In this document: piece after piece, positions 27,001 through 51,000 of the stretch
Position numbering within the stretch: the stretch's first letter is position 1
Layout: each line of letters opens with the position of its first letter
Assembly (NCBI RefSeq): GCF_055900595.2
Contig: NZ_CM148325.1
Strand: one strand, 5' to 3'
DNA length: 64,000 nt
Position numbers: made by a program

Positions 27001-30000
27001 AGTGACCCATGTTGACATATAATGAGTTATAAGCAATGGCTGATATTTTTTTGACATAATATTATCTCCTTCTACACAACAATTCGTTCCGTTAAGGAAA
27101 AAGATTGGTGTCACAAGTATTTATTTATGATTAATCAGAGGGTTTATGACAGAGAAAAGGATGTATATTTCTGAGTAAACATGTACAGGCCTATGGGGTG
27201 ACTATTTAATGAGTAAATGCCGAATGATTTTCGGGGTGATGATTATAACTTGAGGAAAAATCCCAGCGTGGTTTGAGTAGTGTACCTGAGTGATATTTGT
27301 GTTATGTATGCATTGATTGCAGCAGAATAAATATAGTTCAGGCTAGTATAGTTTATGGTAGCTATGAGAATATATAATCTATTTTACCTATAAAATAATT
27401 TATATGTGTGGGGTTGTTTTTTTAGGTTGTTTGTCTGTGCTTTTATATTCTGGAGATGTGCCTTGTATATAGGATTGTTTGTTGGTTGTATTTTTTAATG
27501 TTGCACTGTTGTGAATTTTTATTTTGATATGATTATTTCTTTAGTATAAGGAGAGAAAGGAACGAGAAAGTTAAATCTATTTATCCTAATCGCAATTTCA
27601 TTGTTTAAATAATCACTATGGATTAATATTTTTTGCGACTCTTCTGAGTTACTGGTTTTAACTAGTGGTGTAAAAGGGATACCTTTTCGGTATCCCTTTT
27701 ACAATAATCAGAAGAAATCAATTCGCGTATTGATACCGACGGTGCGACCCATATTGACCTGCGCGACGGCGCTGCTGCCGTTCATGTAGCCATAGGTACG
27801 GTAACGACGGTCGAACAGGTTATCGACATAGACGGAAATGTTCATCCGTTCAGTCGCCTGCCAGCCCAGGCTGCTGTCCAGGGTGGCATAGGTGCCTTGC
27901 CGCAACTGGTTGTCGCCATCGAAATAATGCGGCCCGACCAGATTAACCGCCAGTCGGGGCATCAGTGCGCCATAGCGCGTATCAATCACGCCGTTCACGC
28001 TGCTTCCCGCGCCATAACGTGGTACGAACGGCACCCGGTTACCGTGATACAACTCACTGTCATTGGTGAATTCGGAACGGATCACGTTGCCATTGATATC
28101 CCATGACCAGCCTGGCGCAAACCGCCACTTCGCTTCAAGCTCAACGCCGGTGGCGTCGGCTTTACCCGCATTGCTTAATGTCTGCATCCCGACCGGGCCA
28201 GAGTAAAGCTGCATGTCTTTGGTGTGGGTATAAAACGTCGCGGCTTGCAGCGTGACGTCAGCGGTTTCGTAGCGGGTGCCAAGTTCATAGTTGATGGATT
28301 TCTCGGCGACGAACGGTTTGGCATCAAGACCCGCAGTAGGCACGATGTTGTACCCGGAAGGTTTATATCCCTGGGCTACACGGGTATACACTCTCCAGTC
28401 ATCGGTCAGCATATAGCCTGCGGATAGCTGCCCGAGCACCTGATCGTCATTGCTCTTACCCTGGTCGCCAAACGGGTTGCCGAGCATGCTGCCGTGATAT
28501 TGTGTACTGGATTTATCATGCGAGAAGCGCACGCCGCCGCCGATATCAAAGCGATCGGTTAAATGCCAGGTCAGGTCACTGTATGCGGCCAGCGTTTCAG
28601 CGGTGGTATAGCCGGTACTGCTTAAATAAGGCATTGTCGGCATGTCGTAGGCTGAATTTAACTTCTCGCGGGTGTTCTGCCGGTACAGCCCAAACACCAT
28701 ATCAACGGTACGCGCATCGCCCAGGGTTGCGGCGCGCAGCTCCTGCACATCCTGATTCCAGCGCTGAGGCATATTGACGATTAACGAACCGGAAGGGAAG
28801 GCGCGCGAATAATGCTGCTGCTGCCAGGCGCTGATCAGGTTGAAAACCCAGTCATCGGTGGTGTATTTCCCACTCAGGGTCTGGCTGTCAGTGCAGCGCC
28901 GCATGTACGGGTCTGGTGAACCATCGCTGATCGACAGCTTACGGCCCTTAATATCATTCCATCCCACATAGGCATCCTGGGTGGCGCGGGTACATTCGCG
29001 TGAGGCGGCAAAGCCCATTTCCCAGGGCTGATCGTCCGGCGCCAGACGCAGTTTCACATTCCCTATGCTGGCGCGGGTGCCGCCTAAGTCATCGCTTCCC
29101 GTCGCGGGGTTAATCATGTCGCCGTCATCAACCTGGCGTAACAGGGTGACGCTGCCGTACAGCAGGCCATCCTGAATGGGGCCGCTCAGGTTGAACTTAC
29201 TTCGATAACTGTCGCGGCTACTGACGCCGCCTTCAATATAGCCGCGCGGCGTGCTGTCCGGCTGCTGGGTGACGATGTTGATGATCCCGCCCTGAGCGCT
29301 TTTGCCATATAACGTTCCCTGTGGGCCTCGCAGCAACTCCACGCTTTGCACATCGGTAAGCGCCTGGATGGTGTTGGTGGAAAGCTGAGGGACGCCATCG
29401 ACATACAGGGTGACGGCGGGGTTATAGAAGTCCTGCGCTGAAGAGACGCCGCGTAGCGAGATCGTCGAAAAAAGCATGTTGCCGCTATTTTCAATATTGA
29501 GCCCGGGCAAGACTCTGGGGAGTTTGTCGCTGGCGGTGACGCCGGCGTCGCTTAATTCCGGCGCGCTGACAACAGTAGACGAGACGTTGTTGGCTGATGC
29601 CGAGCGGGAAGATTGTTTACTGGCGGTAACCACCAGCGTGCTTTCGTCTTGCTGTGAAGTCTGGGCATTAGCAATGGCGGGGAGCAATAATCCCCCCAAG
29701 GCCAGAGGATAAAGCCGTGTCATTTTCATTGTTGTGAGTCCCTGTAAGACGGCGAAACGCCAAAAATACCGACAATGGTGAATTGAAAATGATAACTATT
29801 TCTAATAGTGGTGCTACCCGAAACGGGTTTATTTCAACCTGTTTCGGGTCGGTTTGCGCTTATTGGGCAGAATGGCGATAACGGTCGACGGCGAGAGCCG
29901 TCAGGCGTTTTTTGTCTATCTTGCCGACGGCGGTGAGCGGCCAGTGGTCCAGAAACTCGATTTGGTCAGGAATTTTCCACGCGCTGAGCCCCATACGGGT

Positions 30001-48000: not shown

Positions 48001-51000
48001 GCCAGCGTGTTGCCGGGACAATCATGCGGCGTCGGGTATTACGGACTTCACGTAGCGTGGCGGGTTCGCAGGCCAGCGGCAAGACGGGCGCGGGGGGAAG
48101 CGTCGATGCTTTCGCCAGCCAGTAAGCGCGCGCGTCGTCTCTCAGTGGTTGATTGATCTTCTGCTGGTGCAGCAAATACGAGCGGAAATCATAGCGGGTG
48201 TCGATAGCCGGCAGTGATTCTCCGGCCAGCAGGGCGTTAAGCTCATCGAAGAAAAGCGTAAAGCTGGAGGCATCCATAATCAGCAGGTCAATATTGACAT
48301 GGAGGCGGTGGCGATTGTCCGGCAAGAGCGTCAGCTGAAAATCAAACGTTTCGCCGATTTCCACGCGTAAAAGACGGTGGCTCAGGCGCTGGCGCAGTGC
48401 GTCCAGATAGGCCTGGCGGCTTTCAGCGTCGTTATGGCGTAAATCATGAACGGTGACGCCGTTCCAGTAAGGTTGCGGTAGCCAGACCTGCTGCCCGTCG
48501 GGGCGAAAGGCGATATGCAGCATTGGGTGGCGTTGCAGCAAGGTCGTGATGGCCTGCTCCAGCTGCGACGCCGTCAGACAATGGCCTTCAAACTCCTGAT
48601 ACAGGTGGCAACCCACGCCGCCAAGCGTCTGCCCCGGCATGCGGCCCGTCAGGTAGGCGTGCTGTACTGGCGTCAATGGGAAGGGCGTACTTTCGGTCAT
48701 GTTCGGCCAGGATGATTCGTCGGGCGGCGTTTCTTCTTCCGCGTTCTCCGGCGACCGGCTGAGCATTAACTGGTTCCATGCCGCCAGCGTGGGGGCGGCA
48801 TACAGCTCGCGAAGGGTAAGGCGGTAGCCATTTTTACGAAACCAGTGTAACCATCTCATCAATCTTATGGAATCCAGGCCGGCCTGGATCAGGTTGCTCT
48901 CTTCATGTAACTGCTGCGGCGTTAAATTCAGTTCCTGTATGAGCCGCTCGCGTAATTGTTGGTAATCAGCCGCGTGGCGGTTGTCCGGTAACAGCGAATC
49001 CTGAGATGGTGCGCCAGAAATCATTCTTCCTCCTGATGGCACGTCTTACCGAAAAGCATTACTCATATGAGAATAATAATTATTAACAATTGGATGCTAC
49101 CCGAAACGGGTTTATTTATGCCCGTTTCGGGTTGGTAACAGGCGGAAAGAACAGAGGCCCGGATGAGGTATCCGGGCCTCTGTCAGGGAGGAGTTTAGGG
49201 GGGCGCGACCCCGGTTACATCCCGCGTTTAAAGGTCGAAGGAGTTACGCCAAACTGTTTCTGGAAGGCGGCAGAGAAATGGCTGGCGTTGGCATAGCCCA
49301 GATCGGCCGCCACCGTCATGACGGAGGTATTGCCGTTGGCCAGGCGTCTTCTGGCTTCCTGCATTCGTTCAGCCTGAAACAGGCCATAGACGCTGTTGTT
49401 GAACAGAACGCGGAAGCCTCGCTTAATTTTGAGAACGCTCAGACCGGACTCTCTGGCCAGCTCCGCGACGCCCGGCGCTTGCGTCAGATCAGCCAGCAGC
49501 AGATCCTTCGCCCGCAGCAGTTTCTGGCGTTCCATCGGGTTGAAGTGGCAGGAGAGGCAACTGGCGTCTTCGCGATGTTCATCCAGCACCAGGCTGAGCA
49601 TGACCAGACTTTGCCCCTGCAACCATAGCGTCGACGGCTTTTGTTCATGACTGAATCCGCCGTGCATGCGCATCAGCGCGTGACGCAAGGCCTGAGCCGT
49701 TAAGTGGGTTTCAGCATTACAACGCTGCTGCTGGCAACAGCAGTGGGAGTCGATCTTATTCTTAATGACCGCGCTAATATCCGGCACCCACAGCGCGAGG
49801 GTTTCAGGGCTGAAGGAGAGGGTAATGCTCTCGAATCGGCCACAATAGGAGGCGCTGCCGCGACAGTCTGGCGTATGGGTAATGTAATGGCGATTGCGCG
49901 CAAGCTCCCAGTCGGTGTGGCGCCGGAGTCCCTGAATCGCAAAGCGCGATGTGCCTTCCAGGATGCACGAGAAGTTAATCCTGCCCAGATCGTCGTGTAG
50001 CTGCAACGTCTCTGGCCGCGCAAAATGGCCCCTCCAGAGCAAAATATCCATACCTTCCTGCAACGAACAGCGCAGCAGTTCACACTGAGCAGGAATATTG
50101 CCATCGTTTGCAGGTTTCCCGACCACCAACTGGTGAATAGAGATTTCAGATTGCGTTTGCGGTGACTCCGTCATGACCTGGTTATCTCCCTGTGGCTTAG
50201 ACCAATGCGGGTATAAATAGAACCGAATGGGGTAGATGAGTTATTGATAATGGTTATTATTCACATTAATTCTCAGAACGCCACCCTGAATTGTCGTTTT
50301 TGGCGTCCGTAAAAATTCATCAGGAAATTCAGTTACTCCCATGTCATCTCAATCATCCAATACTGAATCGCTGTCCCGATTTCCTCTCTGGCAGGTGATT
50401 ACACCGGTTCGCAGGAAGGTTATTTTAGCTATGGCGCTGGCGGGGCTGGCGGCATTAACCAGCCTGGGGGCGCTCCTTTTTCTGGCGTGGAGCCTGCGTG
50501 ACATTCGCGCGACGCCTGACGCTATTCCGGCCTGGCCGCTGGGCGGCGTGATCGGCTGCGTGGTCTTAACTTTTGTTCTGCGCTTACAGGCGTTCAACAC
50601 CTCTCATTACGCGGCTTTTCATCTGGAGAACATTCTGCGCAGCAGGTTAGCCCGTAAAGCATTGCAGCTTCCGCCTGGCGTGTTACAGCAAATGGGCAGC
50701 GGGTCAGTGGCGAAAGTGATGCTGGATGACGTGAAGTCGTTACATATTTTTGTGGCCGACAGCACGCCGCTCTATGCCCGCGCGATCATCATGCCGCTGG
50801 CGACAATCGTTATCTTGTTCTGGCTGGACTGGCGGCTGGCAATCGCGACGCTGGGGGTACTGGCGTTTGGATCGGTTGTTCTCGTGCTCGCCCGCCAGCG
50901 TTCGGAAAATATGGCTCAGCGTTATCATAAGGCGCGCGAGCAGGTTAGCGCGGCGGTTATTGAGTTCGTGCAGGCCATGCCCGTGGTGAGAACGTTTGAT

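Follow-up and report, generated by a model that had tools for sequence, protein, structure and literature searches.

Inverted repeats beside Fur boxes at the fyuA, irp2 and ybtA-ybtP promoters of an Escherichia coli high-pathogenicity island: probable YbtA and Fur control modules

The inverted repeats and Fur boxes found in a 64 kb stretch of an E. coli chromosome (the window, meaning the whole of the DNA analysed) are very probably the cis-regulatory modules already known for the yersiniabactin regulon, at which YbtA and Fur act. The chromosome carries the Yersinia high-pathogenicity island (HPI). The repeats lie in the promoter regions of fyuA (psn), of irp2 and of the divergent pair ybtA-ybtP (irp6). 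RefSeq annotates an E. coli locus that is 99.5-100% identical, and there the genes follow the order fyuA, ybtE, ybtT, ybtU, irp1, irp2, ybtA, ybtP, which agrees with the labels that an earlier note on this DNA had given them. The landmarks needed below are the following.

29729: ATG of fyuA
29860-62: stop codon of ybtE
49024: ATG of irp2
49215 (stop) to 50174 (ATG), minus strand: ybtA, from open reading frames and the RefSeq product name

The earlier note had considered that the repeat might turn out to lie within coding sequence. Open reading frames and the RefSeq annotation place all the repeats and Fur boxes between genes, and none in a coding sequence. The cognate regulator, YbtA, is encoded within the same locus as the repeats and has the helix-turn-helix of the AraC type (Pfam HTH_18, 3.4e-19; HTH_AraC, 2.2e-07). 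In one plasmid annotation, YbtA is labelled 'PchR'.

The feature itself is already known, as the described YbtA and Fur sites of the yersiniabactin operons. According to PMC5634559, PMC8725597 and PMC11225919, YbtA binds to 'repeated sequences' (RS) in the promoters of irp2, of fyuA and of the divergent pair ybtA/irp6 (ybtP), and Fur controls all of these promoters as well. This supports the dual control that had been read into the window from its sequence. RS1, RS2, RS3 and the Fur sites of the Y. pestis and Y. enterocolitica HPI go back to Fetherston et al. (1996) and Anisimov et al. (2005a, b), as these are cited in PMC5634559, PMC8725597 and PMC11225919. The window has the same island, genes and promoters, with the same RS pair beside a Fur box, and nothing substantive distinguishes it from the Yersinia system, of which it is the E. 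coli copy. The binding of YbtA and Fur and its regulatory outcomes are taken here from the literature; the sequences, geometry, statistics, intergenic position, conservation and restriction to the HPI are our own observations. Through these sites, yersiniabactin turns on its own virulence island and iron turns the island off, as has been known since 1996-2005. What the present analysis adds is the exact coordinates in the window, the geometry (three cassettes, a 21-bp spacing, the third cassette directed towards ybtP) and the finding that, among 5426 E. coli genomes, the motif occurs only within the island; the importance of all this beyond correct annotation is small.

The 21-nt sequence CTACCCGAAACGGGTTTATTT occurs exactly at 29814-29834 and 49097-49117, the two places where it had been noticed, and nowhere else in the window with up to three mismatches allowed; none was found in 100 shuffles. 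Each copy is, as had also been proposed, part of an inverted repeat (29816-29849 at fyuA, 49099-49132 at irp2), of which it forms the promoter-proximal arm. The repeat consists of two 13-bp half-sites of consensus ACCCGWWWCGGGT, 21 bp apart from centre to centre. The fyuA arms read ACCCGAAACGGGT (29816-29828) and ACCTGTTTCGGGT (29837-29849), and those of irp2 ACCCGAAACGGGT (49099-49111) and GCCCGTTTCGGGT (49120-49132). Together with the half-sites of the ybtA-ybtP region, they are listed here.

29816-29828, minus strand: putative proximal YbtA half-site (RS) of fyuA, no mismatch, within the exact 21-mer
29837-29849, minus strand: putative distal YbtA half-site (RS) of fyuA, one mismatch to ACCCGWWWCGGGT; gene strand ACCCGAAACAGGT
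49099-49111, minus strand: putative proximal YbtA half-site (RS) of irp2, no mismatch, within the exact 21-mer
49120-49132, minus strand: putative distal YbtA half-site (RS) of irp2, one mismatch, kept in K. oxytoca
50200-50212, plus strand: degenerate distal half-site GACCAATGCGGGT, four mismatches, exactly 21 bp from its partner
50221-50233, plus strand: degenerate proximal half-site AACCGAATGGGGT, two mismatches, with GGGTAG then ending at 50235

About 0.18 half-sites with at most one mismatch would be expected in the window; five are present, four of them the fyuA and irp2 arms. A lone half-site at 2751 (one mismatch), with which nothing pairs at ±20-22 bp, was taken as a chance match. The distal fyuA half-site begins 10 nt past the stop codon of ybtE. 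The predicted -35 of fyuA, a weak one, is overlapped by CTACCC (29814-29819), which reads GGGTAG in the direction of the gene. A consensus sigma-70 promoter was not found at these promoters, as is expected of promoters that depend upon an activator.

At about 50220 in the ybtA-ybtP region the earlier note had seen a degenerate half-repeat. This half-site is real (50221-50233) but does not stand alone, its partner lying at 50200-50212, and the pair (50200-50233) is thus complete, though degenerate, with the geometry seen at fyuA and irp2. Indeed, the spacing of 21 bp is identical at all three loci. When the modules are aligned in register in the direction of the genes, identity is 80% over 70 bp between fyuA and irp2, and 73% over 60 bp between irp2 and ybtP; the distal ybtA-ybtP half-site lines up with its counterparts at fyuA and irp2 and is kept in K. 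oxytoca and K. indica. To judge by this alignment, the pair is oriented so as to activate ybtP.

Fur sites were scored by counting matches to the 19-bp consensus GATAATGATAATCATTATC, which is the canonical E. coli Fur box (de Lorenzo 1987, as cited in PMC11225919), against a background of windows simulated with a Markov-1 model. Three sites are relevant, each overlapping one or more predicted -10 hexamers.

29785-29803, no strand assigned: putative fyuA Fur box, 13/19, with the predicted -10 TATCAT inside (29789-29794, minus strand)
49069-49087, no strand assigned: irp2 Fur box, 15/19, joint best of the window, with the predicted -10 TATTAT inside (49073-49078, minus strand)
50246-50264, no strand assigned: Fur box shared by ybtA and ybtP, 15/19, with an overlapping 14/19 match at 50240-50258 and predicted back-to-back -10s, TATTAT for ybtP (50255-50260, plus strand) and CATTAT for ybtA (50252-50247, minus strand)

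The irp2 and ybtA/ybtP boxes are the two best matches of the whole window, and a score of 15 was reached in only 12 of the 100 simulated windows. Thus, the further Fur box that had been pointed out between ybtA and ybtP holds. The claim of a Fur-like box near each repeat is sound for irp2, where the consensus count stands above background; near fyuA a box is present too, but 13/19 is by itself the background level (15 sites of the window score exactly 13) and a weak match to the canonical E. coli box. A Fur-consensus match does lie about 10 bp promoter-proximal of both the fyuA and the irp2 repeat, and the fyuA box is in register with those of irp2 and ybtP and almost unchanged across five species. 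Register and conservation are what speak for a Fur box at fyuA.

The published irp2 Fur site, GTTAATAATTATTATTCTC, located 44 bp upstream of the start codon (PMC11225919), is identical to window positions 49069-49087, and the ybtA Fur site given for pESI in the same paper matches 50246-50264 at 18 of 19 positions. Fur shifted fragments of both the irp2 and the ybtA promoters in EMSA (PMC11225919). The ybtA start site of pESI was mapped by RACE, 5 bp downstream of the quoted Fur site (PMC11225919), and when carried across to the window it would fall at about 50240. The -10 hexamers, found inside all three Fur boxes by inspection, the -35 assignments and the start sites of fyuA, irp2 and ybtP are predictions; these three starts would fall some 7 nt downstream of their -10 hexamers.

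The half-sites and GGGTAG are invariant in seven promoter sequences, the Klebsiella/Raoultella loci being 86-91% identical overall, and in those loci the flanks and spacers diverge while the half-sites stay constant. The proximal fyuA half-site is unchanged in 7/7 aligned promoters and the distal one in all four orthologous promoters of the fyuA type. In K. oxytoca, conservation is about 94% in the stretch between ybtA and ybtP, compared to 87% for the surrounding 6 kb. Among 5426 E. coli genomes, the repeat is confined to the HPI: it occurs in 2266/2266 HPI-positive genomes, at a median of four places (two sites on two strands), and a near-perfect copy is absent from all 3160 HPI-negative ones. 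A search of about 100,000 species genomes for the strict pair pattern returned the ybt loci of Klebsiella and Raoultella and only five unrelated loci, four of them in high-G+C flanks and one cyanobacterial; the latter lies inside a 739-aa open reading frame and was taken as a chance match.

Both near-perfect repeats would fold stably if transcribed (-21.7 and -23.0 kcal/mol; z = -5.4 and -4.8), and no other terminator was found at the fyuA copy, 10 nt past the ybtE stop codon. They could accordingly be primarily RNA hairpins, that is, intrinsic terminators or 3'-end stabilisers of ybtE (fyuA copy) and of ybtA (irp2 copy), which we consider very unlikely. No U tract follows the hairpins on the gene strand, where the sequences are AGCACCACUAUU and AGCAUCCAAUUG; terminator-like predictions were obtained only on the opposite (+) strand, on which no gene runs into them; an A·C mismatch in the stem is uncompensated in 4/4 fyuA-type orthologues; and Rfam gave no match within 27000-53000. 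In addition, ybtA has a strong terminator of its own, separate from the RS, and its termination therefore does not need them.

49150-49184, minus strand: ybtA terminator hairpin, folding into a 15-bp stem followed by UGUUCUUUCC

The ybtP copy keeps the register without pairing (z = 0.33). Since this copy cannot form a hairpin, what is conserved is the double-stranded sequence and not a structure. The terminator reading was rejected on three of these grounds, namely the missing U tract, the unfolded third copy and the terminator proper to ybtA; the fyuA copy may nevertheless have a secondary, insulating role. The 80% identity of the fyuA and irp2 modules is, for its part, consistent with common descent, and a MITE-like element of 201 bp is inserted in the ybtA-ybtP copy of some lineages. 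It is nonetheless extremely improbable that the similarity plays no regulatory part today and is just left over from a duplicated stretch of promoter, or from a small palindromic element of mobile or REP-like type. The half-sites are constant and the flanks and spacers divergent among loci with 86-91% overall identity, three promoters have the repeat at a fixed position with respect to the Fur box and the -10, and a function has been assigned to the RS by published genetics; moreover, there are two near-perfect copies per HPI only and none elsewhere in the 5426 E. coli genomes, in which respect REP and MITE families differ.

Control by YbtA and Fur would operate through a cassette of about 65-70 bp, common to the activated promoters of fyuA, irp2-irp1-ybtUTE and ybtPQXS and arranged in the direction of the genes: two 13-bp half-sites of the ACCCGAAACGGGT type, the invariant GGGTAG, about 10 bp, and then the Fur box containing the putative -10. 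Each half-site is an internal palindrome within an inverted pair whose centres are 21 bp, or two helical turns, apart, and a YbtA dimer loaded with (ferric) yersiniabactin would occupy both on one face of the DNA. The centres probably fall near -41 and -62, with the proximal site abutting a poor -35, GTAGCA, and YbtA would recruit RNA polymerase in the class II fashion. When iron is plentiful, the promoter would be blocked by Fe-Fur occupying the box that covers the -10. Between ybtA and ybtP the cassette faces ybtP, and a single Fur box covers the predicted -10s of both back-to-back promoters. The pair lies downstream of the ybtA start site carried across from pESI, which fits autorepression; occupied by YbtA, it would extend from about +8 to about +41 on the ybtA transcript, which diverges from that of ybtP, and would therefore explain autorepression. 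However, YbtA activates PybtA, and does not repress it, in HPI-negative hosts (PMC5634559), showing that the autorepression model is incomplete.

The literature counts three RS in the ybtA-irp6 region, the third beyond the Fur box, and the order starting from ybtA, as deduced from the reporter constructs of PMC5634559, is RS2, RS1, Fur box, RS3. Both half-sites found at 50200-50233 lie between ybtA and the Fur box; a scan for half-site similarity revealed no third RS beyond it at up to 5/13 mismatches. The 201-bp MITE-like insertion occurs in the ybtA-ybtP repeat of some lineages (Salmonella plasmids). It was published as lying 'in one of the three RS', and it maps exactly between the two half-sites, splitting the repeat.

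Class II sites are known for activators of the AraC/XylS family such as AraC (I1-I2), RhaS and MelR, the AraC I1-I2 half-sites being direct repeats. The YbtA pair resembles such sites in that two half-sites with a spacing of 21 bp share one face of the DNA and the proximal one abuts a poor -35, its positions relative to the start site being predicted; it differs from AraC I1-I2 in that its half-sites are inverted and each palindromic. PchR is likewise a regulator of the AraC type. Once loaded with its ferric siderophore it acts as an activator at a bipartite box upstream of biosynthesis and receptor promoters, it also represses the gene that encodes it, and Fur repression is superimposed. The logic is that of YbtA and Fur; the organism, the regulator and the box sequence are different. 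The PchR box of the pyochelin regulon of Pseudomonas aeruginosa is that of Michel et al. (2005), as cited in PMC3672683.

The fyuA and irp2 cassettes are in direct orientation, 19.3 kb apart, and have the exact 21-mer in common. We tentatively suggest, as a possibility that is on balance doubtful, that they serve as recombination substrates through which the whole irp2-irp1-ybtUTE operon is excised, leaving a locus with receptor, regulator, importer and one hybrid cassette; if so, the excised locus would be a possible yersiniabactin cheater genotype. No RS-to-RS deletion junction was found in 2266 HPI-positive E. coli genomes or in 198 HPI-positive plasmids, and a metagenome scan for such a junction yielded one contig, of the K. 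indica lineage. In the representative genome of Klebsiella indica and in a 99% identical metagenome contig there is a hybrid cassette, in which the distal half-site and the spacer are of the irp2 type and the Fur box joined to them is of the fyuA type; fyuA there directly adjoins ybtA, and the biosynthetic operon is missing from the locus.

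When aligned in gene direction, the regulatory regions of fyuA, irp2 and ybtA-ybtP share one cassette. It begins with a distal half-site, which an AT-rich spacer (ATAAATA) separates from a proximal half-site; the latter ends in the invariant GGGTAG, a Fur box follows about 10 bp beyond it, and then comes the gene. The fyuA and irp2 cassettes are 80% identical over 70 bp, those of irp2 and ybtP 73% over 60 bp, and those of fyuA and ybtP 65% over 52 bp. This YbtA/Fur promoter architecture has already been described and the feature is known.

The locus is the Yersinia high-pathogenicity island (HPI), inserted at an asn tRNA. 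Many E. coli chromosomes match a 2-kb segment at about 29.0-31.0 kb with 100% identity; this segment is found in 2266 of 5426 complete genomes. The RefSeq annotation of one E. coli genome with an identical segment, transferred to the window, gives the following map:

Gene map (RefSeq mapping)
27708-29729, minus strand, fyuA
29860-31437, minus strand, ybtE
between ybtE and irp1, minus strand, ybtT and ybtU
33338-42829, minus strand, irp1
42917-49024, minus strand, irp2
49215-50174, minus strand, ybtA
from 50341 (600-aa ORF) or 50431 (RefSeq start), plus strand, ybtP

All repeats and Fur boxes are intergenic on this map, the fyuA repeat beginning 10 nt past the ybtE stop codon, so that the objection foreseen in the earlier note, a repeat lying inside coding sequence, falls away. 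AraC-type HTH domains are present in YbtA. The ATG at 50341 gives a ybtP product of 600 aa, as in the K. oxytoca and K. indica ORFs, and the RefSeq start, 90 nt further in, one of 570 aa. Four asn-tRNA-like copies occur in the window (13786-13922, 16192-16314, 18031-18142 and 58143-58254); the HPI integrase adjoins the one at ~58.2 kb, the classic HPI attachment context.

A search of the whole window found two exact copies of the 21-mer CTACCCGAAACGGGTTTATTT, at 29814-29834 and 49097-49117, where it had been noted before, and no third copy with up to 3 mismatches; shuffled windows gave none. Each copy forms one arm of an inverted repeat, as proposed. The arms were modelled as a 13-bp half-site, ACCCGWWWCGGGT, each with palindromic outer arms, and the whole window was scanned:

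Half-site pairs (half-site scan)
29816 (0 mismatches) and 29837 (1 mismatch), fyuA
49099 (0 mismatches) and 49120 (1 mismatch), irp2
50221 (2 mismatches) and 50200 (4 mismatches), ybtA-ybtP

A window is expected to hold about 0.02 perfect half-sites and ~0.17 that differ at one position, and the spacing is exactly 21 bp in all three pairs. The "degenerate half-repeat" reported near 50220 is thus a repeat and is degenerate, but it is not a half: the pair 50200/50221 is complete. A lone half-site-like sequence, ACCCGTAACCGGT (2751-2763, 1 mismatch, followed by TTTTTT), is intergenic in an unrelated island and has no partner 20-22 bp away; it is probably a chance match or a small terminator.

Fur sites were scored by comparing all 19-mers of the window, on both strands, with the consensus GATAATGATAATCATTATC as given in PMC11225919. 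Within the 64 kb the two top-scoring sites, 50246-50264 and 49069-49087, each reach 15/19, a value reached anywhere in only 12 of 100 Markov-simulated windows. The fyuA box (29785-29803) scores 13/19, as do 14 other window positions, and is therefore not significant alone. It shares alignment columns with the other two boxes and is nearly invariant in five species, and this context supports it as a putative Fur box. The Fur boxes claimed at the promoters thus stand at irp2 and ybtA-ybtP, and at fyuA, where the score is weak, with support from context. Of the Fur 19-mers quoted in PMC11225919, that of irp2 agrees with the window at every position and that of ybtA at 18/19; the same paper shows Fur EMSA with promoter fragments of both genes.

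No consensus sigma-70 promoter was found in any of the three regions, which fits activator-dependent promoters. By inspection, every Fur box contains a -10-like hexamer (TATCAT or TATTAT), and a poor -35 (GTAGCA or GTAGAT) overlaps GGGTAG; with these elements, the half-site centres would lie near -41 and -62.

Footprint statements (Fetherston 1996; Anisimov 2005a, b) are taken from the citing papers PMC5634559, PMC8725597 and PMC11225919. PMC5634559 describes repeated sequences (RS) bound by YbtA, a proposed homodimer with yersiniabactin, and reporter constructs carrying RS2, RS1+RS2, RS1+RS2 with the Fur site, or all three RS; PMC8725597 gives an alignment of all four UPEC operon leaders, noting Fur boxes and pseudopalindromes. 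Together with the sequence anatomy, these RS and Fur descriptions support the dual Fur/YbtA control of the yersiniabactin regulon suggested earlier. PMC11225919 reports that pESI has a 201-bp insertion "in one of the three RS". On a Salmonella plasmid (NZ_CP031362.1, L014:363-563) the insert lies exactly between distal half-site and spacer (GCGGG / insert / TATAAATAG), which corresponds to window 50211/50212 and ties the published RS to 50200-50233. The insertion shifts the distal half-site 201 bp away. The element has terminal inverted repeats and presumably resembles an ERIC/MITE element.

The third cassette is on the plus strand and therefore oriented for ybtP, not ybtA. In PMC11225919, RACE placed the ybtA start at a C, 5 bp downstream from the Fur site; transferred to the window this start would fall at ~50240, placing the repeat pair at about +8 to +41 of ybtA, which would suit the reported ybtA autorepression. 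Two predicted -10 elements stand back to back within the single Fur box, in agreement with the title of Anisimov 2005, which speaks of "divergent overlapping promoters". A third RS that the literature places beyond the Fur box was not found in the window by half-site similarity. Between Fur box and ybtP lies a conserved inverted repeat, ACGCCA-N17-TGGCGT (50278-50306), whose stems are invariant and whose loop is variable in K. oxytoca; it may correspond to the published RS3 or be an element of the leader. It shares the 10-mer TTTTTGGCGT with the fyuA leader (29751-29766), where this forms part of a small GGCG-AAA-CGCC hairpin with a loop that differs between species.

The fyuA and irp2 repeats might instead act as RNA structure, since any transcript of them would form a stable fold (-21.7 and -23.0 kcal/mol, respectively). 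However, on the gene strand neither hairpin is followed by a U tract, a separate terminator with a 15-bp stem serves ybtA (49150-49184), and the ybtP cassette does not fold (z = 0.33) although its sequence register is kept. Moreover, all four fyuA-type orthologues retain the same uncompensated A·C mismatch, and an Rfam search gave no match. This argues that conservation acts on duplex sequence and promoter register, a pattern which, at the level of sequence, is that expected of a protein-binding site.

A strict pattern scan for the repeat pair in ~100,000 species genomes recovered ybt loci of Raoultella ornithinolytica, Klebsiella oxytoca (both promoters), K. michiganensis and K. indica. Overall identity of these Klebsiella/Raoultella loci to the window is only 86-91%, yet half-sites and GGGTAG are unchanged in 7 of 7 promoter sequences; variation occurs in the flanks and in parts of the spacer. 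In K. oxytoca the ybtA-ybtP intergenic region (166 bp) has ~10 differences, compared with 87% identity over the surrounding 6 kb. Five unrelated loci also matched: four lie in high-G+C flanks, and the fifth is from a Xenococcaceae cyanobacterium MAG (L002:4239-4274, ACCCGAAACGGG-N10-CCTGTTTCGGGTAG). In this last one the resemblance goes beyond the pattern that was searched; the site falls within the 3' end of a 739-aa ORF and is probably a coincidence. A 39-nt repeat query was found in all 2266 HPI-positive E. coli and in none of the remaining genomes (5426 in total), at a median of 4 places per genome, that is, two sites on both strands (checked on the window); it detected no extra near-perfect YbtA box outside the island in these genomes.

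In K. indica TOUT106 (L009:5220-8545), compared with window 27708-29850 and 49068-50340, fyuA directly adjoins ybtA through a single hybrid RS/Fur cassette, with distal half and spacer of irp2 type and a Fur box of fyuA type. The 19.3-kb irp2-irp1-ybtUTE biosynthetic operon is absent between them; identity to the window is 90% for the fyuA part and 96.7% for the ybtA-ybtP part. The arrangement suggests recombination between two directly repeated cassettes. The hybrid junction occurs in 0 of 2266 HPI-positive E. coli genomes and 0 of 198 HPI-carrying plasmids. A metagenome contig of the K. indica lineage (OIEP01000055.1, L015) has the same junction, with only the first ~150 nt of fyuA left beside the hybrid cassette (10874-11148) and a different 593-aa ORF (9095-10876) abutting this remnant. 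It also carries the 201-bp element (12207-12402), with 2 differences from the Salmonella plasmid copy, and looks like a decaying ybt locus.
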